The notes under the pieces are model-generated. The model was not told the DNA's origin, did no database searches, and saw only the letters and a program-made list of their open reading frames with translations. 32,701 bases of DNA from Candidatus Atribacteria bacterium (GTDB taxonomy: Bacteria > Atribacterota > JALVIU01), in NCBI GenBank assembly GCA_027028665.1, contig JALVIU010000206.1:1-32701 (forward strand). Direction: 5' to 3'. Shown piece after piece: positions 1,696-28,069 of the stretch. Position numbers and translations under genes: made by a program. How positions within the stretch are numbered: the first letter of the stretch is position 1; each line of letters begins with the position of its first letter.

Positions 1696-1724
1696 TTGAC
1701 TTTTGGTTTTTTTATTTCTATAAT
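1696..1724 (+). promoter_or_regulatory. Near-consensus sigma-70-type promoter of the DUF2877-fdrA-arcC operon
   Basis: TTGACT (1696-1701), 17-nt spacer, TATAAT (1719-1724). Only 7 nt separate the -10 from the ATG at 1732. Confidence 0.55.
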
Positions 1725-1731
1725 TAAATTA

Positions 1732-4390: not shown

Positions 4391-4400
4391 GGAGGCTATC

Positions 4401-5648: not shown

Positions 5649-5663
5649 AGGAGAGATGTGAAG

Positions 5664-6611
5664 ATGGCAAGGATCGTTGTGGCACTGGGAGGAAATGCTA
5701 TACTGCAACCAGGGCAAAAGGGGACATATGAAGAACAACTTACAAATGTAAAGAATACAACTACACAGATTGCAAAGATGGTACAAGAGGGACATGAAGT
5801 AGTCATAACACATGGAAATGGACCACAGGTAGGTGCAATACTTTTGCAAAATGAAGCTGGAGAGAAGCTGTATAATGTACCATCTATGCCTATGGATGTG
5901 TGTGGTTCTGAGACTCAGGGTTTTATAGGTTATATGATACAGCAATCACTTATAAATGAGTTTGTAAAAGAAAATATTAAAAAACCTGTAGCAACAGTAG
6001 TTACCCAGGTTCTCGTAGATAAGGATGACCCTGCATTTTCTCATCCTACAAAACCTGTAGGCCCTTTCTATACAAAGGAAGAGGCAGAAAAGAGGCAGAA
6101 GGAGCACCCAAATGAGGTCTGGATAGAGGATGCAGGTAGGGGATATAGAAGAGTAGTCCCATCCCCTGACCCAAAGGCGATAGTAGAAAAAGATGCGGTA
6201 AACTGTCTTGTGGCAAATGGAAGTATAGTTATTGCATCAGGCGGCGGCGGCATTCCTGTAATAAAAGAAGTAGATGGTACATATAAAGGGGTAGAAGCAG
6301 TGATAGATAAAGATCTTGCAGGGGAGAGACTTGCACAAGAGGTGGGTGCAGATATATTACTCATTCTCACAGATGTACCAAATGCCTATATAAATTATAA
6401 AAAGGAAAATGAAAAGGCCCTTGGCGAAGTTAAAGTGGAAGAAATTGAAAAATATCAAGAAGAGGGCCATTTTAAGGCGGGAAGTATGGGGCCGAAGGTA
6501 AAGGCAGCCATTCGTTTTGTGAAAGACGGTGGCAAAATGGCTATTATTACAGCACTTGAGAAGGCAGTGGATGCACTTTCAGGTAAGGCAGGCACAAGAA
6601 TAGTCCCGTAA
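5664..6611 (+). CDS. arcC: Carbamate kinase
   Basis: N-terminus [14 protein letters not shown], plus [18 protein letters not shown] and [11 protein letters not shown] prefer ATG 5664, which lies 8 nt after the AAGGAGAG SD, over the track GTG at 5658. Confidence 0.9.
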
Positions 6612-6680: not shown

Positions 6681-7745
6681 CTATTCTTTTATAAAGTAAA
6701 GATCTCTGTTTAATACCTTTATTCCTACTTTTTCCCCTGCAGGGAATACTCCTTCCTCCATGGTATAATCCACGACAGAGAGCTCTCCCCATGGACTATC
6801 AAGAAGGTATTCTGCTATCTGTCCGAGATAGAAAGAGGTCTTAACAGTAGCTTCAACCCCTGTCTTTTCTTTGGTAAGTCTTATGCTTTCGGGTCGTATT
6901 ACTACTACCCCTTCTGTTCCAGGAGAGAATTCCTTATCTATATCAAATTCTATTTCAGTTCCTTCAAGTGCTATCTTTACCTTTCCATTATCGTATGATA
7001 CGACCTTTCCATTTACCAGATTGGCCTCTCCGATAAAGTCTGCAACAAACTTATTGGCGGGACGCCTGTAGAGGGTTTCAGCATCTCCGATCTGTTGGAT
7101 CTTACCCTGAGACATGACCACAATCATATCTGACATGGACATGGCCTCTGATTGGTCATGTGTTACATATACTGCAGTAATACCAAATTGTTGCTGTATA
7201 TTTCTTATTTCTCCACGCATCCTCCGTCTCAGTTTTGCATCGAGATTGGAAAGAGGCTCATCAAAGAGGATTACCTTTGGTCTTAGGATCAATGAACGTG
7301 CAAGTGCAACACGCTGTTGCTGTCCCCCTGAGAGCTCTCTTGGAGACCTATTTTCAAGACCAGAAAGACCCATAAGCTCCAGGATCTCTCGTACCATATC
7401 TTTTATCTCTTGTTCTTTATATCCTTTTATTTTAAGACCATATGCAATATTGTGATACACGGTAAGATGTGGGAAAAGTGCATAGGATTGGAAAACCATG
7501 GTAACATCTCTTTCATTTGCCAGGAGTCCTGTTACATCGTCATCACCGATAAATACCCTTCCTTTGGTTACCTCTTCAAGCCCTGCTATAATGCGAAGGG
7601 TAGTAGTTTTTCCACACCCTGAAGGCCCGAGGAGTGTATAAAACTTTCCTGCTTCGATCTCAAGGGTTATGCCATCTACTGCCTTTACATTCCCAAAATA
7701 TTTATATACATTATCCAAATAGACTCTTGATGCCTCTATTTTCAT
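6681..7745 (-). CDS. ABC importer ATP-binding protein (FbpC/AfuC/PotA-type with C-terminal TOBE-like domain)
   Basis: Walker [10 protein letters not shown], signature [13 protein letters not shown], Walker [10 protein letters not shown]-loop VTHD. About 110 aa of C-terminal regulatory domain. A 4-nt overlap joins it to the permease gene. Confidence 0.9.
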
Positions 7746-9757
7746 AAGCTAATCTCCTGTCTTACCCCAATTTTGTTTACCAGGGAGTACATGATAAGGA
7801 TAACCGCAAGTATAATAGCTATTAAAACTGTACTATATGCGGATGCAACCCCCAATGTACCTGCCTCTATACGATTTAAGATAACCACTGTTGCAACTCT
7901 TGTTCTTGCTGTGGTTAAGAATATAACTGCACTTATTGCTGTAATAGAACGTACAAATCCAAACACCCATCCTGAGACAATTGCAGGTTTTATAAGAGGA
8001 AATACTACCTTAAATAATGTATCTGAGTTTTTCCCTCCCAGTGTAGTAGATGCCTCTTCAAGGGATGGGTCAAGTTGTGAAAGTGAAGCAATACCTGATC
8101 GTATCCCCACAGGCATATATCTAAATATAAATGAAAGTATTACAATGGTTGCTGTACCTGTAAGCATAAGGGGATATCTATTAAATCCTATAAGATATCC
8201 TATACCAATAACGGTTCCTGGTATTGCAAAGGATAAAAGTGACGAAAATTCAAGATAACCTCTGCCCGGGAATCTTTGTCGTGTAATAAGGTATGAAATC
8301 ATTATGCCTATTGCGGCTGTGATAAATGCTGATATGAATGCAAACTTCATTGTAATCCACAATGTATCTGTGTATTCGTTGAAAAACCTTGCATAATGGG
8401 CAAAGGTGAATTTATTATTTATTCCCCAGAGTTTCACGAAACTACCATATATTACTGTACCGTATAGAATGGCTGTAAATGAGAACCATGCAACCATGAT
8501 TGTAGTAATTGTGGATTCAAATGTTTTGGGTAGAGGAATAAACCTTCCTCCTGCAGGCTTTCCTGTAACAGTTATATAGGATTTCTTACCAATCCAGTAT
8601 TGTTGCAATAGGAATATAAAGAGTGTTGATGCAAGAAGTACTATACCCAGTGTTGATGCAAGGGTTTCATCATATCTTCCTACTATACTAAAGTAAATTT
8701 CTGTGGCAAGTACGTCGTAGTCTCCACCAAGTACGATAGGGTTTCCAAAATCTGCCATGGATTCTATAGCTGTAAGTAAAAAGGAGTTGGCCACTCCTAT
8801 ACGCAAAAGGGGCCATACCACCTGGGTAAAGGTCTTCCATCTGTTTGCCCCTAATGTAGTAGATGCCTCTTCAAGAGAGGGGTCGAGGGATTTGATAAGC
8901 CCATCTAAGAGCATGTATGATATAGGAGCAAATGACAGAGTCTGGGCAAGTATAAGACCATTTAGACCAAATATTGCCTTTGTGTGTAGATGTAGTAAGG
9001 TTTTTGTTACAAATCCCTGTACGCCAAACATATATATAATTGCAAGACCTATAAGAAAAGGTGGTGTAATTATAGGTAATAAGGAGAAAACAGATATGAC
9101 CTTTCCTATCCACTTTATCCTGGATCTATTTGCCAAAAGGGCGAAAATAAATCCTAACAGAGTAGATGTTACCCCAACGATGGCTGCCAGGGTAAATGTA
9201 TGCCTTAGTACCCTGAAGAGCTGGAAGTATCCCTTTAAGGTGGTAATAAACTGCTTAGGTACCAAAACCCCATATTGTGTAGTGATACTCCTTATGAGTA
9301 TAACTATAAGAGGATAGACTATAAACATTGTTACAACAAGCATGGATACCCAGATAGACCAGGATAGAAATCTATCTCCCTTTATAAAGGAGATGTCAGA
9401 AAGAGAAAAGGCAAAAATAGAGTAAAAAATAGAGAATATTAACGTAGAGCCAAATCCGAACGCCTCTTCTTTAGTAGGTCCAAATACGAGATACACAGTA
9501 ATTGCTGCACCTAATACAGATATAATAAGAGAGATATATCCCTTTGCCTTTTTGTTTTTCAAAAACAGTGGAATAATAAATAGAAGTAGTAAAATACCAA
9601 CTACATAAAATAGAGGGATCCTTGTCCCATATTTTATTGCAGCCTTTGCGGGATCAAAAAAATGATAGAATTTTTTATCATAATTTGCCCATGGTAGGGC
9701 TATATAAGCATATAGCCCTACCAATAAGGAAATAAGTATTCCCTTATCCAGTTTCAT
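7742..9757 (-). CDS. Fused double-domain ABC permease (FbpB/AfuB/ThiP-type)
   Basis: 671 aa and highly hydrophobic. It has two EAA loops with the same core, LDPSLEEASTTLG (ANRW and GKNS variants), about 285 aa apart. This is an internal duplication typical of this permease family. Confidence 0.85.
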   Translation of the reverse strand: MKLDKGILISLLVGLYAYIALPWANYDKKFYHFFDPAKAAIKYGTRIPLFYVVGILLLLFIIPLFLKNKKAKGYISLIISVLGAAITVYLVFGPTKEEAFGFGSTLIFSIFYSIFAFSLSDISFIKGDRFLSWSIWVSMLVVTMFIVYPLIVILIRSITTQYGVLVPKQFITTLKGYFQLFRVLRHTFTLAAIVGVTSTLLGFIFALLANRSRIKWIGKVISVFSLLPIITPPFLIGLAIIYMFGVQGFVTKTLLHLHTKAIFGLNGLILAQTLSFAPISYMLLDGLIKSLDPSLEEASTTLGANRWKTFTQVVWPLLRIGVANSFLLTAIESMADFGNPIVLGGDYDVLATEIYFSIVGRYDETLASTLGIVLLASTLFIFLLQQYWIGKKSYITVTGKPAGGRFIPLPKTFESTITTIMVAWFSFTAILYGTVIYGSFVKLWGINNKFTFAHYARFFNEYTDTLWITMKFAFISAFITAAIGIMISYLITRQRFPGRGYLEFSSLLSFAIPGTVIGIGYLIGFNRYPLMLTGTATIVILSFIFRYMPVGIRSGIASLSQLDPSLEEASTTLGGKNSDTLFKVVFPLIKPAIVSGWVFGFVRSITAISAVIFLTTARTRVATVVILNRIEAGTLGVASAYSTVLIAIILAVILIMYSLVNKIGVRQEISL

Positions 9758-9758
9758 T

Positions 9759-10793
9759 TTACCTTGGTAAAGAGTATATCTCTTTTGTCCATTTATCTAC
9801 GATTTCTTTTCTGTGCTCTCCCGCCCACTTGAAATCGTATTTTATAAGTTTTACATCATCAAAGGATACACCATACTTCCTTATAACTTCAGGAAGAGGT
9901 GCTTTTTTGTTACTTGGAAGCTGATAAGATTCTGCCTTTGGTGCAAGTGCCTGGATATCTGGACGAAGTACAAAATCTACAAACTGCTTTGCAACCTGTG
10001 GATGTGGGCACCAGTTTATAATACTTAATCCACCGATCTCATAACCTGTTCCATCTGCAGGAGGAATAGGAACTATAGGATAACCCTGTTCTGCAAACTT
10101 AACTACATCGTGGAGGAAGATAATAGAGATTGCAATCTCTCCCTTTCCAGCCATAGGACCAGATGCAGCACCAGACTTTGTATAGACTGCAATGTTTTTA
10201 TGGAGTCTTGCAAGGTAGTCCCAACCTTTTTCCCATCCCATAAGCTGTAATATGGTAGAAAGTGTAGTAAATGCGGTACCTGAGGTATTTGGATTTGCCA
10301 TACCTATAAGGCCTTTGTAACATGGTTTTGTAAGATCTTCCCATACCTTTGGAATAGGAAGTCCTTTAGATTTTAAGAGCTCTACATTTACACCCCAGCC
10401 AAGAGGACCTGCATATAAACCCTTTACCATATAAGCAATAGCAGGGTTCTTTGCCCAATCTCTGAGCTCAGGGATCATTGGAGATGTTGGATATGGCTGT
10501 AATAATCCCTCAAGTGCTGCTTCATAGTGAGGGTCAAGGGTACCACCAAACCATACATCACCTTGAGGATTGTTCATCTCTGCTTTGATCTTTGCCAGGG
10601 TCTCACCGGAGGATCTTCTTGTCCAGTCAACAGGGATACCTGTTGCTTTGGTGAATTCATGTGCAACAAGTGCAACCCACTTCTCTGCAGGGCTACCATA
10701 AAGTACTAATCTCTTTTCCCCTGCAAATGCAGAAAATGAAAAGGCAAAAATCAAAAGTAATGAAACGAGTAAGAATACCTTAAAGGTACGCAT
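9759..10793 (-). CDS. Periplasmic substrate-binding protein, FbpA/AfuA family (copy 1, promoter-distal)
   Basis: 344 aa from ATG 10793, which has an AAAAGGAGGT SD; the track ORF extends to 10823. SPI signal MRTFKVFLLVSLLLIFAFSFSAFA. GETLAKIKAE, NPQGDVWFGGTLDPH, NPNTSGTAFT, YTKSG and GTGYEIGG resemble AfuA as I remember it. Confidence 0.8.
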   Translation of the reverse strand: MRTFKVFLLVSLLLIFAFSFSAFAGEKRLVLYGSPAEKWVALVAHEFTKATGIPVDWTRRSSGETLAKIKAEMNNPQGDVWFGGTLDPHYEAALEGLLQPYPTSPMIPELRDWAKNPAIAYMVKGLYAGPLGWGVNVELLKSKGLPIPKVWEDLTKPCYKGLIGMANPNTSGTAFTTLSTILQLMGWEKGWDYLARLHKNIAVYTKSGAASGPMAGKGEIAISIIFLHDVVKFAEQGYPIVPIPPADGTGYEIGGLSIINWCPHPQVAKQFVDFVLRPDIQALAPKAESYQLPSNKKAPLPEVIRKYGVSFDDVKLIKYDFKWAGEHRKEIVDKWTKEIYSLPR

Positions 10794-10828
10794 AATAAAA
10801 ACCTCCTTTTGTAATTTATTCATCTTTA

Positions 10829-10857
10829 ATTATACTTCTTGTGAAAATCTTTGTCAA
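10829..10857 (-). promoter_or_regulatory. Consensus promoter internal to the SBP tandem, driving copy 1 and the rest of the transporter operon
   Basis: On the minus strand: TTGACA (rc of 10852-10857), 17-nt spacer, TATAAT (rc of 10829-10834). Confidence 0.6.
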
Positions 10858-10891
10858 GGAGGTAACATGCCCTATTCTATTTTTTCTGTTG

Positions 10892-11926
10892 TTACCTTGG
10901 TAAAGAGTATATCTCTTTTGTCCACTTATCAAGTATCTCTTTTCTGTGCTCTCCCGCCCATTTGAAGTCGTATTTTATAAGTTTTACATCATCAAGAGAT
11001 ACCCCATATTTTGTCATAACAGGGGGAAGAGGTGCTTTTTTATTGCTTGGAACTTGATTTGCCTCTGCCTTTGGTGCAAGTGCCTGGATATCTGGACGAA
11101 GTACAAAATCTACAAACTGTTTTGCAACATGTGGATGCGGACACCAGTTTATAATACTTAATCCACCGATCTCATAACCTGTTCCATCTGCAGGAGGTGT
11201 AGGCTTTAGAGGATAACCTTTTTCTGCAAATTTTACTGCATCATCTAAGAAGATAATTGCAATAGCAATCTCTCCCTTTCCAGCCATAGGACCAGATGCT
11301 GAACCAGATTTTGTATAGACTGCGATGTTTTTATGCAGTTTTTTTAGATAATTCCAACCCTCATCCCAACCTTTTAATTGTAGAATAGTGGCGAGTGCAG
11401 TAAATGCGGTACCTGAAGTATTTGGATTTGCCATACCTATAAGGCCTTTGTAACATGGTTTTGTAAGATCATCCCATACCTTTGGAATAGGAAGTCCTTT
11501 GGACTTTAAAAGTTCTACATTTATGGCCCAACCAAGAGGTCCAGCATATAAACCCTTTACCATATAAGCAAAGGCTGGATTTTTTGCCCATTCCTTAAGT
11601 TGCGGAATCATTGGGGATGTTGGATATGGCCATAATAATCCCTCAAGTGCTGCTTCATAGTGAGGGTCAAGGGTACCACCAAACCATACATCACCTTGAG
11701 GATTGCTCATCTCTGCTTTAATCTTTGCCAGGGTCTCACCTGTAGATCTTCTTGTCCAGCTTACTGGAATGCCAGTTTGCTTCTGAAATTCCTGAGCAAT
11801 AAATGAGACCCAGGTTTCCTCAGAACTGCCGTAAAGTACAAGCCTTTTTTCCCCGGCAAGTGCAGAAATAGTAAACATGAAGATAAATGCTAAAAGAAAA
11901 ACTAAAAAGATTTTAAAAATACGCAT
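10892..11926 (-). CDS. Periplasmic substrate-binding protein, FbpA/AfuA family (copy 2, promoter-proximal)
   Basis: 344 aa. SPI signal MRIFKIFLVFLLAFIFMFTISALA. Aligns without gaps to copy 1. GGAGGGGG SD upstream. Confidence 0.8.
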   Translation of the reverse strand: MRIFKIFLVFLLAFIFMFTISALAGEKRLVLYGSSEETWVSFIAQEFQKQTGIPVSWTRRSTGETLAKIKAEMSNPQGDVWFGGTLDPHYEAALEGLLWPYPTSPMIPQLKEWAKNPAFAYMVKGLYAGPLGWAINVELLKSKGLPIPKVWDDLTKPCYKGLIGMANPNTSGTAFTALATILQLKGWDEGWNYLKKLHKNIAVYTKSGSASGPMAGKGEIAIAIIFLDDAVKFAEKGYPLKPTPPADGTGYEIGGLSIINWCPHPHVAKQFVDFVLRPDIQALAPKAEANQVPSNKKAPLPPVMTKYGVSLDDVKLIKYDFKWAGEHRKEILDKWTKEIYSLPR

Positions 11927-12029: not shown

Positions 12030-12983
12030 CTATATCCCAGATATTTTTATAGCGAGCATTACAAAGAAAGGGAAAGTAATAAGACTTAACATGTACATGA
12101 TAAATGCAGATTGACTTGCAATTACGTCGTTTCCTCCATAGAAACGGATATACACGCTTACACTTATAGCAACAGGGGATGCCCCTTCCATTATAAGCAT
12201 AAATTTTAGATATCCTGGCATGGGGATAAGTATAGCAATAATGAGGAAAATAGTAGGTATAATAATAAGCTTTAAAAAACTTGCCCAGAGTGCATGGGAA
12301 TAATCTATTGGTCTTTTATTTTCAAATGAATAATAGAGAATACCACCCAATGTAAATAGTATAATAGGTATAGTTATGTTGCCCACTCGTTCAAATGCAT
12401 TCATAAGGACTTTGGGCATGTAATTATTAAAATGCAGGAAAACAAAGAGAAGGGCAATAGTAAGCGCTATAATAGGCATGCTGAGGAAGGTTTTTATCCC
12501 TATACCATCCTTTTTCTCTGGTGCAAAAAAGAATTTTGTGGTAGAGATGATAATGGGCCCATAGAACATACAGAACAAAAAAATGTATACGAAAAATAGG
12601 GAAGCCTTTTCAGGAGAAAATAGAGAAGAAACTACTACAAGCGGAAGATATGCTCCATTTTGAAAGGCAGAAAGCATGATAAATTCTCTTTTATAGGTTA
12701 TCTTTTTATTAATTTTTAAGAAAATATAGGCAATGATTACTCCGCCAAACATTACCAGTATGTTTGCAAGAGGTAATAGATACCAGTAGGGGGTAGAACT
12801 TGCCTGGGAAAACTTTTTAGTAATATTTACAAATATTAATAAAGGATATGTAAGATTTACGGTAAGTGCTCCCAGGTGTTTGGTATCCTCTCTGGATAGC
12901 CATCCAAAGTGAAAGGCCAAGACTCCTAATATTGCAACAATAGATATTTCAATTATCGCTTTGAATACTACCCAGATTGTCAT
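12030..12983 (-). CDS. AEC-family (auxin efflux carrier / malate-permease-like) membrane transporter
   Basis: 317 aa with about 10 hydrophobic segments split by a short central loop. The N-terminus MTIWVVFKAIIEISIVAILGVLAFHFGWLS is typical of the Mem_trans family. GGGAGGGA SD upstream. Confidence 0.7.
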   Translation of the reverse strand: MTIWVVFKAIIEISIVAILGVLAFHFGWLSREDTKHLGALTVNLTYPLLIFVNITKKFSQASSTPYWYLLPLANILVMFGGVIIAYIFLKINKKITYKREFIMLSAFQNGAYLPLVVVSSLFSPEKASLFFVYIFLFCMFYGPIIISTTKFFFAPEKKDGIGIKTFLSMPIIALTIALLFVFLHFNNYMPKVLMNAFERVGNITIPIILFTLGGILYYSFENKRPIDYSHALWASFLKLIIIPTIFLIIAILIPMPGYLKFMLIMEGASPVAISVSVYIRFYGGNDVIASQSAFIMYMLSLITFPFFVMLAIKISGI

Positions 12984-13152: not shown

Positions 13153-14277
13153 ATGGAAAAAAGGAGTTTAGGGACCAGTGGTATTGAGGTATCCATTTTG
13201 GGTCTTGGTGGCTTTCATCTCCTGGAAATAAAGACAGCACAGGTGGCACAACTTGTTGATTATTTTATAGATCAAGGTGGTAACTATTTTGAAACAGCAG
13301 CAGAATATGGAAATGGAGAGTCAGAGAAAAAACTTGGATATACACTAAAAGGAAAGAGAGATAAGATTGTGCTTGCATCTAAAGTACATAAAAGGGATAA
13401 AGAAGGGGCAAGGCACTATCTTGAGAGGACTTTAAAGAATTTAGATACAGATTATCTGGATATATGGTTTTTACATCATGTAGTAACACCAGATGACCTC
13501 TCTTCACTTCTGGATAGGCCTTCTGCGCTGGATGTGGCTCTATCTGCAAAAAAGGAGGGTAAGATAAGGCTTATAGGTGTATCTACCCATGGAAGGCCAG
13601 ATTTTGCCATGGAACTTATAGAGAAAACAGGCGAGATAGATGTGGTTATGACACATTTTAATTATTTCGATAAGTTTAATTTTCCCAAGATAGAGGATGA
13701 GCTTATTCCTCTTGCAAGGGAGAAGGGAATGGGTATAGTGGGTATGAAGGCATTTGCAGATGGCTTTTTGCATAGGCATCCAGAAGATGCCTTAAGATAT
13801 GCCCTATCTTTGGATGTTGACACTATGGTAGTTGGTGCAAATAATATAGAGCTTCTAAAAAAAGATATAGGGATCCTGAATAACTTTACTCCTATGTCTA
13901 AGGATGAGATGGAAGAACTTTTTCTAAACGCAGAAGAGCTGGGAAACTATGTATGTAGACAGTGTGATAAGTGTCTTCCATGTCCAGAGGGTATAGAAAT
14001 ACCAGAGATATTTAAATACGAGGGCTGGTATGATAGACAGATGAGAGATTATAATATACACCCTATCGAAGAGCATATAATGAGGGAACACCTTGCATTC
14101 TGGTTTAATGGTGATTACAAGGATGCACCGATAGAGGCATACAAAGAGCTTAAGGTAAATTACCTTGCATGTACACATTGTAATATATGTAGTAGTCGCT
14201 GTCCTTACAATATAGACATACCTGAAAAGCTAAAGATCGTACATAAAAAACTTGCAGAAGGAGAGCTTCTTATATAA
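13153..14277 (+). CDS. Aldo/keto reductase fused to a C-terminal 2x[4Fe-4S] ferredoxin-like domain (COG1453-type)
   Basis: N-terminal AKR barrel (LGTSGIEVSILGLGG, FETAAEYGNGESE, LASKV, DIWFLHH). The C-terminus carries CRQCDKCLPCP and CTHCNICSSRCP cysteine clusters. GGGAGGAGG SD upstream. Confidence 0.8.
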   Translation: MEKRSLGTSGIEVSILGLGGFHLLEIKTAQVAQLVDYFIDQGGNYFETAAEYGNGESEKKLGYTLKGKRDKIVLASKVHKRDKEGARHYLERTLKNLDTDYLDIWFLHHVVTPDDLSSLLDRPSALDVALSAKKEGKIRLIGVSTHGRPDFAMELIEKTGEIDVVMTHFNYFDKFNFPKIEDELIPLAREKGMGIVGMKAFADGFLHRHPEDALRYALSLDVDTMVVGANNIELLKKDIGILNNFTPMSKDEMEELFLNAEELGNYVCRQCDKCLPCPEGIEIPEIFKYEGWYDRQMRDYNIHPIEEHIMREHLAFWFNGDYKDAPIEAYKELKVNYLACTHCNICSSRCPYNIDIPEKLKIVHKKLAEGELLI

Positions 14278-15151: not shown

Positions 15152-15179
15152 ATTATACTATAAATTTTCTATTTGTCAA
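15152..15179 (-). promoter_or_regulatory. Promoter of the DPSL/cyt-b5-like bicistron
   Basis: On the minus strand: TTGACA (rc of 15174-15179), 16-nt spacer, TATAAT (rc of 15152-15157). Confidence 0.55.
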
Positions 15180-15217: not shown

Positions 15218-16693
15218 TTAGACATAGAGCCCTTTTGCCACCTCAAATGCCTTATCCCAGGATACCTTATGCTGTGAAGGTGTAAACTCTTCCATAGGAA
15301 ATGATGTACTCACTATAGCCCTTCCCTCTTTTAGATCTTTTATTAAACCTAAGGATATAGCTTGAACGAGGATATTTCCTATAGTAGTTGCCTCTTGGGG
15401 TCCTGTTATAACTCTTTTTCCTATGGCATCTGCTGTAAATTGTGAGAGTAGCCTATTCTTTATACCACCACCTACGATATGAAGAACTTCTATTTCCCTT
15501 TCTGTTATTTCTTCTAAGAGTTCAAATATGTATCGATACTTTAGGGCAAGGCCTTCAAGTACTATCCTTACAATACTTCCAAGGTCAGATGGTACCTTTT
15601 GTCCTGTCTTTTTGAGGTATTCTTTCACTGCATCTATCATGTCAGGAGGGTTAAAAAATATGGGGTTATCAGGATCTATGATACCAATAAATGGTTCTGC
15701 CTTTTTCGCAAGTTTTACCAATTCATCGTATGACTTTTCATCTCCCCTTTTCCCTGCAGAGCGCTTTATCCCCTGCATAAGCCATAGGCCCATTATATTT
15801 TTTAGAAGCCTTATATTTCCGAGTACACCACCTTCATTTGTAAAGTTATATTTATATGTTTTATTATTTATAATAGGTTTATCTATCTCTACTCCCATTA
15901 ATGACCATGTACCTGAACTGAGATATGCCCAATTTTCACCCTCTGCAGGCACAGAGGCTACTGCAGATGCGGTATCATGTCCTCCTGGTAATATAACAAT
16001 TCCAGAATTTATGCCGAGTTCTTTCTTAATATATGGAAGAGGTTCTCCCTGTTTTTCGCCTGCGGCCTTTATAGGTGGAAAGAGGTGTTTTGGTATCTCT
16101 AATGCATCTATGAGTTCCCAATGCCAATCGTTGTGTGTATAATCATATAACTGAGTAGTAGAAGCTATGGTAAACTCTACCTCCTTTTTCCCTGTGAGAA
16201 AGTAGGAAAATAGATTTGGCATCAAGATTAGTTTATCTGCAATCTCAAGCCCAGGGTCTTTATTTGTAACCATTGAAAAGAGCTGAAATATAGTATTAAG
16301 TTGCATAAATTGAATGCCTGTTTTAAAAAACACCTCTTTTCTGGGGATTATCTCAAATACTTTATCCATTATGTTATTTGTGCGAGAATCCCTATAGTGA
16401 TAAGGGTTTCCTATAATATTTCCCTGTCTATCCAGTAGACCAAAATCTACCCCCCATGTATCTATACCCAGTGAGGCCATTTTATCCCCATATGTAAGCT
16501 TAAACTTTAAAAGACCTTCCTTCATACTCTGAAACAGTCTTAGCACATCCCAAAATAGATGCCCGTTTACATATACAGGGATATTGGGAAATCTATGTAT
16601 CTCTTCTATTATTAGTCTATTTTCCTTTAATTTTCCTGCTACCAACCTTCCACTTTCTGCACCAAAATCAAAGGCAAGTATGTATTTATCCAT
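15218..16693 (-). CDS. rhaB: FGGY-family sugar kinase, rhamnulokinase (RhaB) subfamily
   Basis: 491 aa. FDFGAESGR, IHRFPN, IDTWGVDFGLLD, YHYRDSRT, GIQFMQLNTIFQL, YLSSGTWSLMG, NFTNEGG, LKNIMGLWL, LHIVGGG and GPQEATTIGN align with E. coli RhaB as I remember it. Confidence 0.75.
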   Translation of the reverse strand: MDKYILAFDFGAESGRLVAGKLKENRLIIEEIHRFPNIPVYVNGHLFWDVLRLFQSMKEGLLKFKLTYGDKMASLGIDTWGVDFGLLDRQGNIIGNPYHYRDSRTNNIMDKVFEIIPRKEVFFKTGIQFMQLNTIFQLFSMVTNKDPGLEIADKLILMPNLFSYFLTGKKEVEFTIASTTQLYDYTHNDWHWELIDALEIPKHLFPPIKAAGEKQGEPLPYIKKELGINSGIVILPGGHDTASAVASVPAEGENWAYLSSGTWSLMGVEIDKPIINNKTYKYNFTNEGGVLGNIRLLKNIMGLWLMQGIKRSAGKRGDEKSYDELVKLAKKAEPFIGIIDPDNPIFFNPPDMIDAVKEYLKKTGQKVPSDLGSIVRIVLEGLALKYRYIFELLEEITEREIEVLHIVGGGIKNRLLSQFTADAIGKRVITGPQEATTIGNILVQAISLGLIKDLKEGRAIVSTSFPMEEFTPSQHKVSWDKAFEVAKGLYV

Positions 16694-17995
16694 CTATTTT
16701 CCCTCCTTTGCTACAGGTATTACATATGGTCCTTCAGGGATAATGGCTATTTTTACATCATCTCCAAAGCTCTCTTTCGCAATAGTTATCCCCTCTTCTA
16801 TACTTTTTATCCTTTTTGTAAATGTAAGAGATTGATCATTATCTGAAAGAGAGGAATACATATATATCTTATCTGTCACCTTTAATACCTTTACAAGTTC
16901 TTCTACCTCCCATTGGTCAGGTACGAATTTTTCCATATCATATAGACGTTTGAGAAATTTATCATAATCTCCCATCTCTTTTAATTCTAAAAGTACATCT
17001 ACAAAATATTTGCTCCCAAGACCCTCACTGCATTCAGAAGCAATAATTACCATTCCCCCGGGTTCGAGGATATCCAGTGTACCCACAAGCCCTTTTACCG
17101 TCTGGTAATATGTTTTATCAAGGGGATATCCTGCTGATGTGGTGATCACCGCCTTTACCCTTTCATCTACCTCTATTGTAGAGTATTTCTTTGCAAATTC
17201 TACTCCCTTTAGATAGGCCTTTTTAAGGTCTCCTGTAAATATCCCCCCTATATTTCTCTCCTCATCTACCACTACATTTACAATAAAATCTACACCAGCA
17301 AGTTCTGCAATCTTTGTTGCACCTTCGTGGAATGGATTATCTTCTAATACAAGATTTCTTGCATTTTCTGATTCAAGTACATATGGGCTATGATAATATT
17401 TTACTGTCTCAAAAGAAGAGATGCCAGGAAGTACAGATTTTCTCCCCCCAGAAAATCCTGCCATAAAGTGTGGCTCTATGAGGCCTGTAAGGATTTTAAG
17501 TTCTGCATTTAAAAAGTATTTGTTTATGTATACATCTACATCCCCTGTTTTTCCCACATACCCCATATCATCCATATTCATTGCATTATGATTTATTATT
17601 CTGTAGCTGTTTGCAATCTCTTCTCCCACAAGTTCGATAAGTTCATCCCCTATATTTGGGCGGTGAATCCCTGTAGCAATTAAAATAGTGATTCCCTCTT
17701 TTTTTATACCTGCCTTTTCAAGGGTAGATAGTATAGGGGGTAATATAATTTTATTGGGTACAGGCCGTGTGATATCAGATATAACGATGGTTGCATTCCT
17801 TTTCCCTTTTGCAAGCTCTATGAGAGGAGGGCTTTCAATAGGGGAGGAGAGTGCCTGTTCTAAGGCCTTTGTAGGTTCTTCTACAATAGGCATCTCCCTT
17901 TTCCTTATTATCTTATATACATTCCTGGACGGGATAGAAAAATTAATACCTTCTTTTCCATATAGGAGTTTTATATCCATTATCCCCTCCTTCAT
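16694..17995 (-). CDS. larA: LarA-family nickel-pincer-nucleotide-dependent 2-hydroxyacid racemase/epimerase homologue (DUF2088)
   Basis: 433 aa. Equivalents of the L. plantarum LarA key residues are present: R77 (DITRP), H111 (ATGIHRP), H176 (EPH), K186 (SGGRK, codon 17438-17440), H202, and Y296-Q297-x3-K301 (YYQTVKG). The alternative ATG at 17980 has a stronger SD. Confidence 0.85.
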   Translation of the reverse strand: MKEGIMDIKLLYGKEGINFSIPSRNVYKIIRKREMPIVEEPTKALEQALSSPIESPPLIELAKGKRNATIVISDITRPVPNKIILPPILSTLEKAGIKKEGITILIATGIHRPNIGDELIELVGEEIANSYRIINHNAMNMDDMGYVGKTGDVDVYINKYFLNAELKILTGLIEPHFMAGFSGGRKSVLPGISSFETVKYYHSPYVLESENARNLVLEDNPFHEGATKIAELAGVDFIVNVVVDEERNIGGIFTGDLKKAYLKGVEFAKKYSTIEVDERVKAVITTSAGYPLDKTYYQTVKGLVGTLDILEPGGMVIIASECSEGLGSKYFVDVLLELKEMGDYDKFLKRLYDMEKFVPDQWEVEELVKVLKVTDKIYMYSSLSDNDQSLTFTKRIKSIEEGITIAKESFGDDVKIAIIPEGPYVIPVAKEGK

Positions 17996-18936
17996 TTTAT
18001 ATTTTTGAGATTTTCCATTACTTCATCACTCAATATACCAATCATTTCAAAACTCATAAGCAGGGCACCGCCTATAGGTGTAAGTACAGGTTCTCTAAGT
18101 TCAAAACCTAAGATTCTTAATTTTTCCTTGACTATCTTTTTATAATATGAAGATGTGAAAACTCCACCTGCATATGAGATATAGTCATCCTTTATCCCGC
18201 GTTTTACAGGTCCTACGCCCTTAAGGAGCTTTTCTATATTCTCTTCTATAATAGTTCTTGCTACAAAATCTCCTTTTTCTGCAGTGTTTATTACATGTGG
18301 AGCGAAAGAGGCCACCTTTTTTCTTCCTGCCTTTTTTATATAGAAAAAATTTACTACATCTGTGATGGTAGAAAGCCCAAAATGTTCTCTTAATGCTCCT
18401 TCGAGTGCTGTAGCAGGACCCATGCCCTCCCAATAGCTCATTACACTCCTTATGGCATCATACGATATACGAAAACCACTTCCCTCATCACCTAATAGAT
18501 GGCCCCATCCACCTGCCTTGTAGTGTTTTCTGTTTTCATCTATCCCTATTATCATAGAACCTGTGCCAGATAGTACAATCATACCCTTTTTCCTTCTACC
18601 TATTGCTCCAATAGTTGCTATGTAACAGTCATTTCGAACCTCTATTTTCTTTGATTTCACTACCTTTCCAAGCTCTTTGGCAAGATATATGTTCAATTCT
18701 CTTTCAAATCCAGCACCGCCAATTCCTGCAACTACTGCATCAAATTCTCTGTATTCAAAAGATGAGAGAGCTTCTTTTACTGAGTTTACCATTCCTTCTA
18801 CGCCTACTACAAGGTGATTTGATGGACCTCCCTTACCCTCATAAAGTAGGTTTCCCTTCTCATCTGTAACTGCCACCTTCGTTTTTGTGCCTCCACCATC
18901 TATTCCTAAGAACAAATTTAACCACTCCTTTCCCAA
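17992..18936 (-). CDS. BadF/BadG/BcrA/BcrD-type ASKHA ATPase (N-acetylglucosamine-kinase-like sugar kinase)
   Basis: LGIDGGGTKTK phosphate-1 motif, VLSGTGS and GGWGHLLGDEGSG. The likely true start is the TTG at 18915, 9 nt after an AAGGAG SD, rather than the track start at 18936. A 4-nt overlap joins it to larA. Confidence 0.75.
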   Translation of the reverse strand: MGKEWLNLFLGIDGGGTKTKVAVTDEKGNLLYEGKGGPSNHLVVGVEGMVNSVKEALSSFEYREFDAVVAGIGGAGFERELNIYLAKELGKVVKSKKIEVRNDCYIATIGAIGRRKKGMIVLSGTGSMIIGIDENRKHYKAGGWGHLLGDEGSGFRISYDAIRSVMSYWEGMGPATALEGALREHFGLSTITDVVNFFYIKKAGRKKVASFAPHVINTAEKGDFVARTIIEENIEKLLKGVGPVKRGIKDDYISYAGGVFTSSYYKKIVKEKLRILGFELREPVLTPIGGALLMSFEMIGILSDEVMENLKNIK

Positions 18937-19084
18937 GACTTCTTTTATAATAGTAGCATATTACAAAAGATACCGCAATTTTTTTGCTAATTTTTTCTAT
19001 AAGGATGGATCTATTGACAATATAGAAAAATATATGCTATCTTTCTTATGTAAAAGGTTTGTTTAGAATAATTTCTTAGATACC

Positions 19085-19113
19085 TTGACAAATATTTTTA
19101 CTTATTTTAAAAT
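19085..19113 (+). promoter_or_regulatory. Promoter of cheW
   Basis: TTGACA (19085-19090), 17-nt spacer, TAAAAT (19108-19113). Confidence 0.5.
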
Positions 19114-19133
19114 GAAATAAAGGCGTAAAAAGT

Positions 19134-19682
19134 ATGAAAGGGGGAAGGAGAGGTATGGATGAAGAAAAAAGAGATGTAGTCGAGCTTCAACTTGTAGTTT
19201 TTAAAATTGGAAGTGAAGAGTACGGTGTAGAGATCTCGGAAGTGCAAGAAATCAATAGAATGATTGAGATTACCAAGATTCCAAGAGCACCTGAGTTTGT
19301 AGAGGGTGTTATAAATCTCCGTGGTAAAGTTATCCCTGTGATTGACTTGAGAAAGAGATTTGGTATGCAGAAAAAAGAATATGATAAAAACTCCAGAATT
19401 ATAGTAGTGGAGATAGATGGCAAACTCGTAGGGATGATAGTAGATGCGGTTACAGAAGTATTAAGGATTACAAGTGATAATATAGAGCCTCCACCTCCTA
19501 TCATTGCAGGTATTGGTTCAGAATATCTAAAAGGTGTAGGAAAGTTAGATAATAGAATGCTTATCCTCCTTGACCTCTCTAAGGTGCTTACAGATGTAGA
19601 AAAGGAACATCTCCTTGAGCTCCAGGAAAGAAAAGATCTGGGAGCAGAAGAGGAGAAACAGGAAGCAGAAGTTACTACATAG
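19134..19682 (+). CDS. cheW: Chemotaxis coupling protein CheW
   Basis: LVVFKIGSEEYGVEISEVQEI, IPRAPEFVEGVINLRGKVIPVIDLRKRFG and IVVEIDGKLVGMIVDAVTEVL are classic CheW-domain motifs. The alternative start at ATG 19155 follows AAGGAG. The C-terminal tail is acidic. Confidence 0.85.
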   Translation: MKGGRRGMDEEKRDVVELQLVVFKIGSEEYGVEISEVQEINRMIEITKIPRAPEFVEGVINLRGKVIPVIDLRKRFGMQKKEYDKNSRIIVVEIDGKLVGMIVDAVTEVLRITSDNIEPPPPIIAGIGSEYLKGVGKLDNRMLILLDLSKVLTDVEKEHLLELQERKDLGAEEEKQEAEVTT

Positions 19683-19720
19683 ACTTAACAAAAACTTTAT
19701 AAGATAGGGTTAGTTTTCAT

Positions 19721-19750
19721 TAACTAAAGGGGCAGATGCCCCTTTAGTTA
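19721..19750. terminator. Bidirectional hairpin between cheW and the convergent DGC-domain gene
   Basis: 13-bp perfect stem: TAACTAAAGGGGC, loop AGAT, GCCCCTTTAGTTA. It overlaps the minus-strand stop codon. Confidence 0.65.
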
Positions 19751-20155
19751 ATTTTTTTCCTTTATTTTATTTATAATCTTATTAGATATTCTTTCTACAT
19801 CTTTTTCGTCAAAATCAAGTGTAGGAACCTTTTCTATACCTTCTTCTGAAACAGTAATTTCATAGTATGGTTTGATCCCTTTATCCTTAACTACCTTTGA
19901 TGCACACTTTAATGGACATCCATTTATTACTATTAATTTTGGAGATTTTTTTGCAATATCTACATGAAGCTTAGAACCCGCAGCAATTGCAGTAATGCAA
20001 CACATCCTTGCAGCCTCTATCTCTTTTGTGAGTTTTACAGCTACCATATGGCCTATTTGCCCTACACTTGATGCCCCATCGCATGCAACTATTATATCTA
20101 AGCGTTCTGCTTCTTTTCCGCAGTTTGGCAAAATTTGCCAGCCATTTTTTGTCAT
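19748..20155 (-). CDS. DGC-domain (putative zinc-binding, Cys-rich) protein
   Basis: 135 aa. The pattern ACDGASSVGQ ... MCCITAIAAG ... INGCPLKCA matches my memory of the Pfam DGC family. GGAGGG SD upstream. Confidence 0.5.
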   Translation of the reverse strand: MTKNGWQILPNCGKEAERLDIIVACDGASSVGQIGHMVAVKLTKEIEAARMCCITAIAAGSKLHVDIAKKSPKLIVINGCPLKCASKVVKDKGIKPYYEITVSEEGIEKVPTLDFDEKDVERISNKIINKIKEKN

Positions 20156-25381: not shown

Positions 25382-26428
25382 ATGAAGAGGAAGATCGATC
25401 CTTATTTTGCCAGGACTCTTGTGTATGGTGGCGCGGTGCTTGGTGGAGGAGGCGGGGGAAATATCGAAGAAGGCCTGGAATTTATAGATGAGCTCTCCAG
25501 GTATAAAAATCCGCTTCTTTTATCTCCAGATGAGATAGATGATGGATATATAGTAACTGTTGCGATGGTAGGTGCTCCTTCTTCAAAAAAGAAGCTTTCC
25601 TCATCTATTATTATCTCTTCATTTGAATTCTTTAGAGAAAATTTCAAACAAGAAATATCAGGTATTATTACAAATGAAATGGGTCCATTTGCCTCTGTAA
25701 ATGGGCTCTTACAATCTGCCTTCACCCTGGTTCCAATTATTGATGCACCTGCAAATGGGAGGGCTCATCCCCTTTCTGCTATGGGAGCCATGGGCTTGAG
25801 CAAGTTAAAGAACTATGTATCTTATCAGTCAGGTGTAAGTGATCTCCTCAAAGTCTATGTAGAAGGAGATATAAACACCACCTCTCAACTTATGCGGAGT
25901 GCCTCTGTGGTTTCAGGGGGTATTATATCTATTACAAGAAACCCGGTAGATATTGGATATCTAAGGGAAAATGGTGCAGTAGGGGCTATAGATTTTACCC
26001 ATAAACTTGGAGATATCTGGCTAAGCAGGAAAGAGCCCATGGAGAAGATAGATGGGTGTATATCTTTCCTAAAAGGTAATAATCTGGGCAGGTTCTCTAT
26101 AGATAATGTAACCTTATCTCAGGAGGGTGGTTTTGATATAGGAAGAGTAACCTTTGGAGATTTTGAGCTTATCTTCTGGAATGAATACATGACCCTTGAG
26201 AAAAAGGGAATACGAATAGCTACATTTCCCGATCTTATTGTACTCTTTGATCCTTTGACAGGGCTTCCTCTTTCATCCTATGAACTCACAAAGGGACAGG
26301 AGATTGTGGCTTCATATACAAGCTATAAAAACATTATTCTTGGAAGTGGCATGAGGGATAAAACCCTTTTTGAATATACAGAAAAGGTCATAGGTAAGGA
26401 TCTTATAAGATACCTTGACCTATTTTAA
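25382..26428 (+). CDS. DUF917-like protein (function unknown)
   Basis: 348 aa. The glycine run VLGGGGGGN near the N-terminus and IIDAPANGRAHPLSAMG resemble the DUF917 signatures (GTGGGG ... DAD-x-GRA-x-PE) as I remember them. The assignment is tentative. Confidence 0.45.
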   Translation: MKRKIDPYFARTLVYGGAVLGGGGGGNIEEGLEFIDELSRYKNPLLLSPDEIDDGYIVTVAMVGAPSSKKKLSSSIIISSFEFFRENFKQEISGIITNEMGPFASVNGLLQSAFTLVPIIDAPANGRAHPLSAMGAMGLSKLKNYVSYQSGVSDLLKVYVEGDINTTSQLMRSASVVSGGIISITRNPVDIGYLRENGAVGAIDFTHKLGDIWLSRKEPMEKIDGCISFLKGNNLGRFSIDNVTLSQEGGFDIGRVTFGDFELIFWNEYMTLEKKGIRIATFPDLIVLFDPLTGLPLSSYELTKGQEIVASYTSYKNIILGSGMRDKTLFEYTEKVIGKDLIRYLDLF

Positions 26429-26446
26429 AGAAGGAGGTGTAGGTTT

Positions 26447-28033
26447 ATGAAGAAGTTTTTGGTATTCTCTTTGGTATTAACACTTGTTTTGACCTCATTT
26501 GCACTTGTAGGATATGCAAAAGAGGTGGTATTTAAATATGCAACAGGGCAGGAAACTATGTGTTTTGATCCAGCACTTCATAGAGATGAGACACAGTCTG
26601 CAAATGTCTTCAACCTTTATGATCCACTGTTTTATCCTGTAAGAGGTGGGGCACCTATTCCATGGCTTGTAGAGTCTTATAAGGTCTCAGATGATGGAAA
26701 AGTCTATACCTTCAAACTGAAAAAAGGTGTAAAATTTCATGATGGAACAGAGATGACAGCAGAAGATGTTGCATTTTCTATGTTGAGAATGATAAAAATC
26801 AATCAGGGATTTTCCTGGCTATGGAAGGGTATAGTGGATCCAGAGAAGATAGAAGTATTGGATAAATACACGGTAAAGTTTGTATTGAACAAACCTTATG
26901 GTCCATTCATTGCAACACTTGTACAGTTTCATGTGGTAAATAAGGATCTACTTATGAAGAATAAAAAACCTGGTGATTGGGGTGAATACGGAGACTTTGG
27001 TATGGCATATCTCCAGGACCATGATGCAGGCTCAGGTCCATTTACCCTTGAGAAGGTACAACTTGGTGATAGGCTCACATTGAAGAAGTTTGATGGGTAT
27101 TTCAAGGGCTTTAAGGAAAATTCCCCTGATGTGGTGAACTGGCTTGTAGTTCCAGAGAAAGCTACATATGTAGCTATGCTCAAAAAGGGAGAAGTTGATA
27201 TGATAGATCAATGGCTCTCTCCTGAGAACTTTAAAGACCTTGCAAAAACAAAGGGTGTTGTGGTTCAGGAAGATCCAAATGTGCAACTCTTCTTCCTCCA
27301 GATGAACAATAAAAAGAAACCCCTTGATGATGTAAATGTAAGAAAAGCAATATCTTATGCATTTGATTATAAAGTGGCAGTAAATGATATATTTAAAGGT
27401 GGAAAACAGGCAGAAGGTCCTGTTCCTATCCTTATGCCAGGACATGCAAAAGATGTGACAGTTTATCATAAAGATCTCAAAAAGGCAAAAGAATACCTTG
27501 CAAAATCCAAGTATTCCAAAGCCGAACTTAAAAACATGGAACTTACATATGTATATGTAAATTCTCTTGATCTTGAGAGAAAAATAGGTCTTTTGCTTGC
27601 CAATGATCTTGCACAAATTGGTCTGAAGGTTAAGATAAAAGGTGAAACATGGTCAAGAATTACCCAGCTTGCAAAATCTCCTGATACTACACCACACTTT
27701 ACGGCTATATTCCATACTGCAAAATATCCATCCCCAGATAGCCATACATATCTTATGTACAATAAACATGCATGGGGTACCTATATTTCTATGAGTTGGT
27801 ATGATAATCCAAAGGTAGATGAACTTACCGAAAAGGCGAGACAGACCATTGATGTAAATGAGAGATATAAATTATATGAAGAAGTCCAGAGAATAGTAAC
27901 AGCTGATGCAGCATCTCTGTATATTGTAAACCCACTTCATAGGATCGCATTTAGAGATTGGGTAAAGGACTATAATTATGTAGGAATCCTTGGATACGAT
28001 CTTGAATTTGATCATTTGAAGATAGAAAAATAG
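26447..28033 (+). CDS. ABC transporter substrate-binding protein, family 5 (DppA/OppA/NikA-type)
   Basis: 528 aa. SPI signal MKKFLVFSLVLTLVLTSFALVGYA. Size and motifs (FKLKKGVKFHDGTEMTAEDVAFS, GSGPFTLEK, LVVPEKATYVAMLKKGEVD) are typical of SBP_bac_5. AAGGAGG SD upstream. Confidence 0.85.
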   Translation: MKKFLVFSLVLTLVLTSFALVGYAKEVVFKYATGQETMCFDPALHRDETQSANVFNLYDPLFYPVRGGAPIPWLVESYKVSDDGKVYTFKLKKGVKFHDGTEMTAEDVAFSMLRMIKINQGFSWLWKGIVDPEKIEVLDKYTVKFVLNKPYGPFIATLVQFHVVNKDLLMKNKKPGDWGEYGDFGMAYLQDHDAGSGPFTLEKVQLGDRLTLKKFDGYFKGFKENSPDVVNWLVVPEKATYVAMLKKGEVDMIDQWLSPENFKDLAKTKGVVVQEDPNVQLFFLQMNNKKKPLDDVNVRKAISYAFDYKVAVNDIFKGGKQAEGPVPILMPGHAKDVTVYHKDLKKAKEYLAKSKYSKAELKNMELTYVYVNSLDLERKIGLLLANDLAQIGLKVKIKGETWSRITQLAKSPDTTPHFTAIFHTAKYPSPDSHTYLMYNKHAWGTYISMSWYDNPKVDELTEKARQTIDVNERYKLYEEVQRIVTADAASLYIVNPLHRIAFRDWVKDYNYVGILGYDLEFDHLKIEK

Positions 28034-28036
28034 GAA

Positions 28037-28067
28037 ATAAATAAGGGGGGCTTCCCCCCTTATTTAT
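28037..28067 (+). terminator. Intra-operon hairpin after the SBP gene (partial terminator or mRNA stabiliser)
   Basis: 14-bp stem: ATAAATAAGGGGGG, loop CTT, CCCCCCTTATTTAT. It lies between the SBP stop (28033) and the permease start (28070). Confidence 0.45.
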
Positions 28068-28069
28068 AA

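Follow-up and report, generated by a model that had tools for sequence, protein, structure and literature searches.

A LarA-type racemase gene paired with a rhamnulokinase-type gene in Atribacterota and its suggested role in deoxy-sugar breakdown

The roles of most homologues of the lactate racemase LarA are obscure, including those of the radiation of enzymes resembling LarAH2, also called Sar. We analysed a stretch of 32,701 nucleotides from a Candidatus Atribacteria bacterium (GenBank assembly GCA_027028665.1, contig JALVIU010000206.1, hereafter the window), in which three co-directional minus-strand genes encode a BadF-type sugar kinase, a LarA homologue (LarAH) and an FGGY kinase of the rhamnulokinase subfamily. 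A first-pass annotation of this DNA had read the three genes as a kinase-epimerase-kinase module. According to the synteny in related genomes, the conserved functional unit is the LarAH-FGGY pair, while the kinase-LarA-kinase triad is not conserved. We favour, by a modest measure, the reading that this pair is the core of a sugar-utilisation locus in one Atribacterota clade, that the sugar is most likely a 6-deoxyhexose, for instance L-rhamnose or L-fucose, and that LarAH racemises the lactate that results.

The closest solved structure to LarAH is the LarA of Isosphaera pallida (LarA_Ip, LarAH2 or Sar; 9EIA/9EID; PMC11851776), with 369 bits and 43% identity to 9EID. Both proteins belong to the same two-domain fold family, their cofactor, catalytic and carboxylate-binding residues are identical, and they share the Met and the Trp of the substrate pocket. 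In LarA_Ip the pocket residues L174, M175, W356 and Q357 (L-M-W-Q) surround the substituent on the C-alpha of the bound D-lactate (PMC11851776), whereas the pocket of LarAH reads F-M-W-E. In a neighbour-joining tree without support values the two enzymes fell on opposite major branches: LarA_Ip in an L-M-W-Q group, and the kinase-linked homologues as a single clade nested in an F-M-W-E group. No conserved gene context has been reported for LarAH group 2 (Desguin et al. 2020), whereas the clade of the window LarAH is locked to a rhamnulokinase-type gene.

LarA1 of L. plantarum and LarAH51 of Clostridium pasteurianum are lactate racemases that LarAH also resembles (PMC11770544). Four positions, F175, F176, W358 and T359 of LarA1, govern specificity; lactate racemases carry F-F-W-E/Q there, and gluconate epimerases carry E-V-A-H (PMC11770544). 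LarAH shares three of the four signature positions with this group as well as the Glu of LarAH51, an enzyme that prefers lactate about 10-fold over glycerate and also accepts glycerate and 2-hydroxybutyrate (PMC11770544). It differs by Met in place of Phe at the second pocket position, and its score against L. plantarum LarA (LarA_Lp) is 232 bits. A further difference is that it is not flanked by larBCE or by genes for a lactate permease or an aquaglyceroporin.

The first-pass annotation knew of no LarA homologue within a kinase-epimerase-kinase module; to hold that LarA homologues are never linked to kinases would be too strong. In Table S1 of Desguin et al. (2020), FGGY kinases of COG1070 accompany LarAH group 20 (86%) and group 22 (25%). 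The enzymes of these two groups are hexonate epimerases, and the product of the epimerase is the substrate of the kinase. GntE2, the LarAH20 D-gluconate/D-mannonate 2-epimerase of Thermotoga maritima (PMC7583248), provides a precedent in the literature for the clustering of a LarA homologue with such a kinase. GntE2 differs from LarAH in being very distant in sequence, in its E-V-A-H pocket and in its partner, a gluconokinase acting directly on the epimerase product; the kinase of the window pair is of the rhamnulokinase type and would act several steps before the racemase.

On the kinase side, the closest described systems are the canonical rhamnose and fucose clusters (RhaM, RhaI, RhaB/K, class II aldolase and lactaldehyde oxidation) and the planctomycete-type fucose/rhamnose microcompartment. 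They use the same kinase subfamily as the window, and relatives of the window locus also share with them an XylA/RhaI-like isomerase, an RhaS-like binding protein and a DeoR-type regulator. A further likeness to these systems is that related LarAHs lie inside clusters with aldolase and aldehyde:ferredoxin oxidoreductase (AOR) genes, or with aldehyde dehydrogenase, PduL and BMC genes. The Atribacterota loci differ from the canonical clusters in being without aldolase and mutarotase genes and in having isomerases that score below the RhaI cut-offs. A literature search retrieved no published rhamnose or fucose cluster with a LarA-type racemase, and no link of a lactate racemase to rhamnulokinase, rhamnose or microcompartments.

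The LarA homologue and its FGGY partner

LarAH is encoded at 16694..17980 on the minus strand (428 amino acids; the longest open reading frame, 16694-17995, reaches 17995). Both Lar_N (PF09861, 7.9e-66) and LarA_C (PF21113, 4e-24) were matched over their full length, which is the two-domain architecture of the LarA superfamily. Besides 9EID and LarA_Lp, the solved structures of Thermoanaerobacterium LarA (261 bits) and of malate racemase Mar2 (227 bits) were retrieved, as compared with just 27 bits for the T. maritima gluconate epimerase 4NAR.

Residue numbers below follow the 433-residue version of the protein. The cofactor residues R77, K186 (the tether, in SGGRK) and H202 (the Ni ligand) are present and correspond to R75, K184 and H200 of LarA_Lp. 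The catalytic histidines H111 and H176 and the binders of the carboxylate and 2-hydroxyl groups, Y297, Q298 and K301, are likewise present (H108, H174, Y294, Q295 and K298 of LarA_Lp). All of these cofactor, catalytic and carboxylate-binding residues are invariant across an alignment of 122 relatives. It had been claimed from the first reading that every key residue is kept; this was confirmed, and only the numbering of the tyrosine and glutamine, given as Y296 and Q297, was off by one.

The substrate pocket consists of F177, M178, W362 and E363. Three of these four match the lactate-racemase signature, and the Met at the second position is that of the broad-spectrum LarA_Ip. The F-M-W-E signature occurs in all kinase-linked relatives and also in kinase-less ones, 43 of the 122 sequences in total. 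Judged by these residues, the pocket is of the small, lactate or short-chain type and not of the hexonate type, and LarAH is predicted to be a nickel-pincer-dependent racemase of short-chain 2-hydroxyacids, lactate above all. The protein is a known kind of enzyme in a genomic context that is undescribed and yet explainable.

The FGGY kinase gene follows directly (15218..16693, minus strand, 491 amino acids). FGGY_N (3e-28) and FGGY_C (2e-37) were both found. Models of rhamnulokinase are by far the best for this protein, the next being fuculokinase with 148 bits. It aligned over its full length to solved kinases, residues 4-470 to S. pneumoniae FucK (4C23, 371 bits) and residues 6-474 to E. coli RhaB (2CGJ, 312 bits). 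The motifs GIDTWGVDF, YRDSRT and HDTASAV are kept, the last one being the catalytic HDTASA segment (GGHDTASAV). Its nearest homologue outside the phylum, from Chloroflexota (55% identity), lies in a cluster of RhaM, an isomerase, AOR, a class II aldolase and the kinase. No rhamnose or fucose pathway gene (isomerase, aldolase or mutarotase) was found in the window, while Atribacterota relatives carry an isomerase and an ATP-binding cassette (ABC) transporter. By its motifs and model scores the enzyme is a predicted L-rhamnulose/L-fuculose 1-kinase.

Conservation of the pair and rearrangement around it

Relatives were collected by look-ups of the genomic context of exact proteins, which gave eight distinct Atribacterota lineages with a LarAH at least 67% identical to that of the window (L001, L005, L087/88, L089, L098, L099, L086 and L090/91). 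In all eight the FGGY gene comes directly after LarAH, and the junction between them is anything from a slight overlap to a gap of about 15 nt. This short junction is kept down to 67% protein identity, where synonymous sites are saturated (dS 1.3-2.7). A regulator of the DeoR family stands immediately upstream of LarAH in six of the eight (L001, L005, L087/88, L089, L098 and L099), and these six also have an XylA/RhaI-like TIM-barrel isomerase, a divergent RbsB/RhaS-like ABC transporter, or both. The isomerases belong to two families that are only 24% identical to each other, one at 2141-3271 of L001/L005 and the other at 61-1185 of L087, 3509-4633 of L089 and 2035-3159 of L099.

The BadF gene behaves differently. 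Two lineages alone carry it upstream of LarAH, namely the species of the window itself (L090/L091, 100% identical) and L086 (92%), and a scan of species-representative genomes for the triad likewise returned one relative, an Atribacterota metagenome-assembled genome. Orthologues of BadF occur without LarAH in L093-L097, in the arrangements UxaC-CheW-GNAT followed by BadF-AnmK (L094/95), BadF beside ferritin (L096/97) and GFO-BadF-x-DeoR (L093). In L099 the order is CheW, then isomerase-DeoR-LarAH-FGGY; this is the chromosomal spot of the window with isomerase-DeoR in the place of BadF. Among 80 metagenome loci with LarAHs 42-56% identical to the window protein, none has a BadF or an FGGY gene nearby. 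The module claimed in the first-pass annotation, whose conservation in other genomes was to be checked, is therefore specific to one lineage. Because of these synteny patterns, we regard LarAH-FGGY as the conserved unit and BadF as a resident of a rearrangement-prone site.

A deletion supports this unit. In L093 (GCA_053938705.1, 3765-4731) all that remains of FGGY behind the orthologous DeoR gene is its final 39 codons (residues 453-491), after which comes hutH. LarAH has thus been deleted along with the greater part of FGGY. BadF is encoded there two genes upstream of DeoR. A comparison of the two triad genomes showed purifying selection on each of the three genes, with ratios of nonsynonymous to synonymous substitution rates (dN/dS) of 0.05-0.16. 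The values against L086 are 0.054 for FGGY, 0.109 for LarAH and 0.155 for BadF. The idea that LarAH-FGGY is a decaying remnant left after the loss of DeoR and the isomerase was ruled out by the dN/dS of 0.05-0.11.

Related racemases in other phyla were found in lactaldehyde-like surroundings. On one strand of the metagenome contig Ga0334885_1009532 (L026, 1-6627) lie genes for a GlcD-like dehydrogenase that uses flavin adenine dinucleotide (FAD), AOR, a class II aldolase, a LarAH (49% identity, F-M-W-E pocket), a second class II aldolase and an XylA/RhaI-like isomerase. The contig offers an independent example of a LarA-type racemase within a ketose-phosphate/aldehyde pathway. Locus L058 reads PduL, aldehyde dehydrogenase, BMC, BMC, LarAH (F-M-W-E), GlcD-like and GlcF-like, with partial versions in L040 and L082. 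In Mahella (L002, 58% identity, F-M-W-E) the LarAH gene is accompanied by aldehyde dehydrogenase, acetate kinase, BMC, electron transfer flavoprotein and FAD oxidase genes. Altogether, neighbours of the lactaldehyde/lactate type were present in 16 of the 80 metagenome loci, and in 12 of the 50 loci with a length of 6 kb or more. A Pfam census of immediate neighbours, weakly informative alone, gave 100 families among 119 neighbours with none in more than five; LarC (PF01969) was the immediate neighbour in one of the 80 loci.

A deoxy-sugar route and its rivals

We suggest that LarAH serves in the stereochemical clean-up of lactate derived from L-lactaldehyde during the breakdown of fucose/rhamnose-type sugars, because the racemase and rhamnulokinase genes are locked together in one clade and because racemases with the same signature lie elsewhere in clusters with aldolase, AOR, microcompartment and D-2-hydroxyacid dehydrogenase genes. 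Of the two hypotheses offered at first reading, the one that connected deoxy-sugar catabolism through L-lactaldehyde and L-lactate to lactate racemisation is the better supported by this comparative context. Rhamnulose-1-phosphate and fuculose-1-phosphate are both cleaved to dihydroxyacetone phosphate and L-lactaldehyde. The sugar would be taken up by the RbsB/RhaS-like ABC transporter, converted to a ketose by the XylA/RhaI-like isomerase and phosphorylated at C1 by the FGGY kinase. A class II aldolase encoded elsewhere would then cleave the ketose-1-phosphate to dihydroxyacetone phosphate and L-lactaldehyde, and the latter would be oxidised to L-lactate. LarAH would interconvert L-lactate and D-lactate, and possibly act on glycerate too, by proton-coupled hydride transfer between the substrate and a Lys-tethered nickel-pincer nucleotide, with the assistance of two histidines. 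This interconversion would allow the stereospecific 2-hydroxyacid dehydrogenase of the cell to yield pyruvate. In the lineage of the window, the regulator and isomerase genes upstream of LarAH would have been replaced by the BadF-type kinase gene, which would now be co-transcribed with LarAH-FGGY while standing outside their pathway. It is in line with this proposal that Atribacter laminatus, a cultured Atribacterota species, uses rhamnose for growth (PMC7736352). If it is true, a dependence on nickel is added to deoxy-sugar fermentation in subsurface anaerobes.

Several points weigh against this proposal. The best NCBIfam model for LarAH, Ni_dep_LarA (NF033504), gave 405.4 bits, under its equivalog cut-off of 460, and the FGGY kinase also stays under the equivalog cut-offs of both rhamnulokinase models (487 bits against 528 for TIGR02627 and 414 against 639 for NF007925). 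The isomerases of the DeoR loci score 40-101 bits against RhaI and XylA models whose cut-offs are 447-531. No larBCE gene, and no gene for an aldolase or for a dehydrogenase of lactaldehyde or of lactate, occurs in the window or in the retrieved Atribacterota loci. The central steps of the route and the supply of cofactor are therefore assumptions; we infer that the genes for cofactor synthesis, the aldolase and aldehyde oxidation lie elsewhere in the genome, as we infer the substrates and the order of the steps. It is unusual, too, for an end-product racemase to be encoded right ahead of the kinase when the aldolase gene lies elsewhere. A. laminatus was reported to produce no lactate from glucose. 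The tree of LarAHs was built by neighbour joining and carries no support values. Finally, the alignment has 26 positions peculiar to the kinase-linked clade. Among them, Y201 and L189 adjoin the Ni ligand or the tether and P359 is near the pocket helix, with which a shift in specificity is possible.

Such a shift would open the way to an enzyme that applies the nickel-pincer cofactor to an intermediate peculiar to the pathway, perhaps a 6-deoxy or 4-deoxy sugar acid or the hydrate of lactaldehyde, and so supplies a step otherwise missing from the locus, such as an epimerisation or internal redox isomerisation. We consider this quite unlikely, yet it would mean a new nickel-dependent route of sugar catabolism in a poorly studied phylum. 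The same clade-specific substitutions could also be cited for the other hypothesis of the first reading, in which LarAH, as a C2 epimerase of a new type, would act on a sugar acid or on a ketose phosphate (gluconate/mannonate on the way into the uxaC pathway being one example) between the phosphorylations by the two flanking kinases. The gene does lie in a transcript between two sugar kinases with uxaC 1.5 kb away, and LarAH groups 20 and 22 are associated with FGGY kinases and UxaC. The pocket, however, is the F-M-W-E of the kinase-less relatives and not the E-V-A-H of GntE. Moreover, LarAH scores 26 bits against the hexonate-epimerase model NF052594 (cut-off 500) and 70 bits against the LarAH14/15/16 model (cut-off 740), and the FGGY kinase is of the rhamnulokinase and not the gluconokinase type (45 bits, cut-off 649). 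BadF is also missing from six of the eight lineages that keep LarAH-FGGY, and the UxaC-CheW-BadF synteny persists elsewhere with AnmK in the place of LarAH-FGGY. A C2 epimerase is thereby made very improbable.

The deoxyhexose proposal is pressed more closely by a variant with the same pathway logic and a different sugar. Since the isomerases and the binding protein fall well short of every specific model, and so fit no particular sugar, this glycerate-producing variant is a live rival, although a rather unlikely one. Here the aldolase would release L-glyceraldehyde or another aldehyde, and LarAH would mainly racemise glycerate (or 2-hydroxybutyrate or 2,4-dihydroxybutyrate), feeding D-glycerate to glycerate kinase or to a D-2-hydroxyacid dehydrogenase. 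Enzymes of the lactate-racemase group do racemise glycerate, some of them better than lactate (PMC11770544), and in L099 a D-2-hydroxyacid dehydrogenase resembling glyoxylate/hydroxypyruvate reductases (416 bits, cut-off 455) is encoded two genes upstream. However, the characterised enzyme with Glu at the fourth pocket position, as in LarAH, is LarAH51 with its roughly 10-fold preference for lactate, whereas the glycerate-preferring enzyme has Gln. Related F-M-W-E enzymes lie beside lactaldehyde-type microcompartment genes and GlcD-like dehydrogenases, and the kinase family serves rhamnulose and fuculose. There might equally be no pathway link at all, with LarAH as a general racemase for exogenous D/L-lactate and the adjacent kinase gene as an accident inherited in one clade. 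The great heterogeneity of neighbourhoods in the wider family, as seen in the Pfam census, and the restriction of the pairing to one clade of one phylum would fit such an accident. It is less easily reconciled with a junction that stays short at 67% identity in spite of dS values of 1.3-2.7, with the joint loss of both genes in L093, with the position of the pair behind a sugar-type DeoR together with an isomerase and a sugar transporter, or with the F-M-W-E LarAHs of other phyla that independently accompany class II aldolase, AOR and isomerase genes. We therefore regard mere adjacency, too, as improbable.

The BadF kinase, transcript boundaries and other genes of the window

The BadF/NagK-type kinase of the ASKHA superfamily is encoded at 17992..18915 on the minus strand (307 amino acids; the longest open reading frame, 17992-18936, reaches a TTG at 18936). 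It matched BcrAD_BadFG in Pfam (7e-32), so that all three family assignments of the first-pass annotation were borne out by Pfam. Its closest solved structures are a kinase of N-acetylmuramic acid (MurNAc) and N-acetylglucosamine (GlcNAc), 8ZO3, and the S. tokodaii hexokinase 2E2N; the NagK_SO3507 model gave 116 bits (cut-off 370). The kinase-type ASKHA motifs DGGGTKT and GWGHLLGDEGSG are present, and the protein contains a single Cys. A role as the [4Fe-4S] activator of a 2-hydroxyacyl-CoA dehydratase, which would have offered a link to lactyl-CoA, was ruled out by the single Cys, the kinase motifs and the kinase-type structure matches.

Orthologues of BadF are 44-62% identical, most of them with 307 residues, a length shared by every one in the range of 56-62% identity. 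In L094/L095 the orthologue is followed by AnmK (392 bits, cut-off 387) with a 1-nt overlap, a translational coupling that recalls the MurK/NagK-type BadF-family amino-sugar kinases and AnmK. Because its orthologues elsewhere pair with AnmK, BadF is probably an amino-sugar kinase of the GlcNAc/MurNAc type that serves in the recycling of cell-wall sugars. It differs from the characterised MurK/NagK kinases by an identity of only about 30% and by the absence of AnmK from the window, in whose place stand LarAH and FGGY. BadF is probably a lineage-specific upstream neighbour outside the conserved core that was placed there by rearrangement. The kinase-racemase-kinase sandwich is accordingly a product of local rearrangement and not a pathway, which calls for caution when genomes are read by adjacency.

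It should be further pointed out that an orphan cheW and a DGC-domain gene lie between uxaC and the BadF operon (19134-20155), with no other chemotaxis gene in the window. The uxaC-cheW-BadF neighbourhood is kept in L094/95, and cheW also flanks the L099 locus.

The gene starts were revised as follows. A perfect Shine-Dalgarno sequence, AGGAGG (17991-17986), lies 5 nt ahead of the second ATG of the LarAH frame at 17980, and the protein has 428 residues both in homologues and in the annotation of the same species (L090, GCA_054005955.1). The start is therefore most likely at 17980, and the BadF/LarAH junction is then an 11-nt spacer (17981..17991) that holds this ribosome-binding site, abutting the BadF stop codon TGA (17994-17992). 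The tight coupling described at first reading was upheld, as was the 0-nt LarAH/FGGY junction, in which TAG is directly followed by ATG; the 4-nt overlap between BadF and LarAH was replaced by this spacer. For BadF, the sequence AAGGAG is found 9 nt upstream of the TTG at 18915, which is most likely the start and gives the length of 307 residues typical of its orthologues.

Candidate promoters for the three-gene transcript are confined to the divergent BadF/cheW intergenic region (18916..19133), where weak sigma-70-like matches to the consensus occur, for example TTTACA-16-TATTTT at 19054-19027. In the scan for promoters and terminators the numbers of matches were not above the shuffled expectation, and no terminator was found 3' of FGGY. 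The one match worthy of attention is a perfect sigma-70 consensus promoter, TTGACA-16-TATAAT, at 15152..15179 on the minus strand, which serves the downstream ferritin-like gene; the operon therefore ends with FGGY. An Rfam scan of the window for riboswitches and leaders gave no match.

As had been stated before, no larB, larC or larE gene was found in the 32.7-kb window, in a scan that covered every open reading frame of at least 100 amino acids except antisense shadows of annotated genes. A second candidate for a nickel-pincer enzyme was noticed at 13153-14277 (plus strand), where a 374-residue aldo-keto reductase with a C-terminal 4Fe-4S dicluster domain is encoded. Its best solved structure is NphT (9YEB), a nickel-pincer-dependent aldo-keto reductase described in 2026 (PMC13524815). 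His146 and Lys199 of the window protein fall on the Ni-ligand (H144) and tether (K200) positions of NphT. The same His and Lys were present in 139 of the 150 best cluster representatives of the reductase; in 109 of these 139 the C-terminus is, in addition, rich in Cys. Judging from these residues, another nickel-pincer enzyme may be encoded within 3 kb of LarAH, namely this reductase, in a subfamily of aldo-keto reductases with Fe-S domains. Such a neighbour makes cofactor synthesis by the organism more plausible.

Three other gene groups were also noted in the window. At 1696-6611 (plus strand) AllH-like, FdrA-like CoA-ligase-domain, AllG-like and carbamate-kinase-family genes stand in a row that resembles the oxamate carbamoyltransferase/carbamate kinase branch of anaerobic allantoin or ureidoglycolate degradation. 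An ABC transporter at 6681-11926 (minus strand) comprises a fused double permease of 671 residues, a TOBE-domain ATPase and two tandem paralogous binding proteins of the SBP_bac_8/6 type, after which comes a Mem_trans permease of the auxin-efflux-carrier family (12030-12983). At 25382-31866 (plus strand), a complete peptide ABC transporter of the Opp/Dpp type (an SBP_bac_5 binding protein, two permeases and two ATPases) is encoded behind an S-Me-THD-like (DUF917-type) gene.

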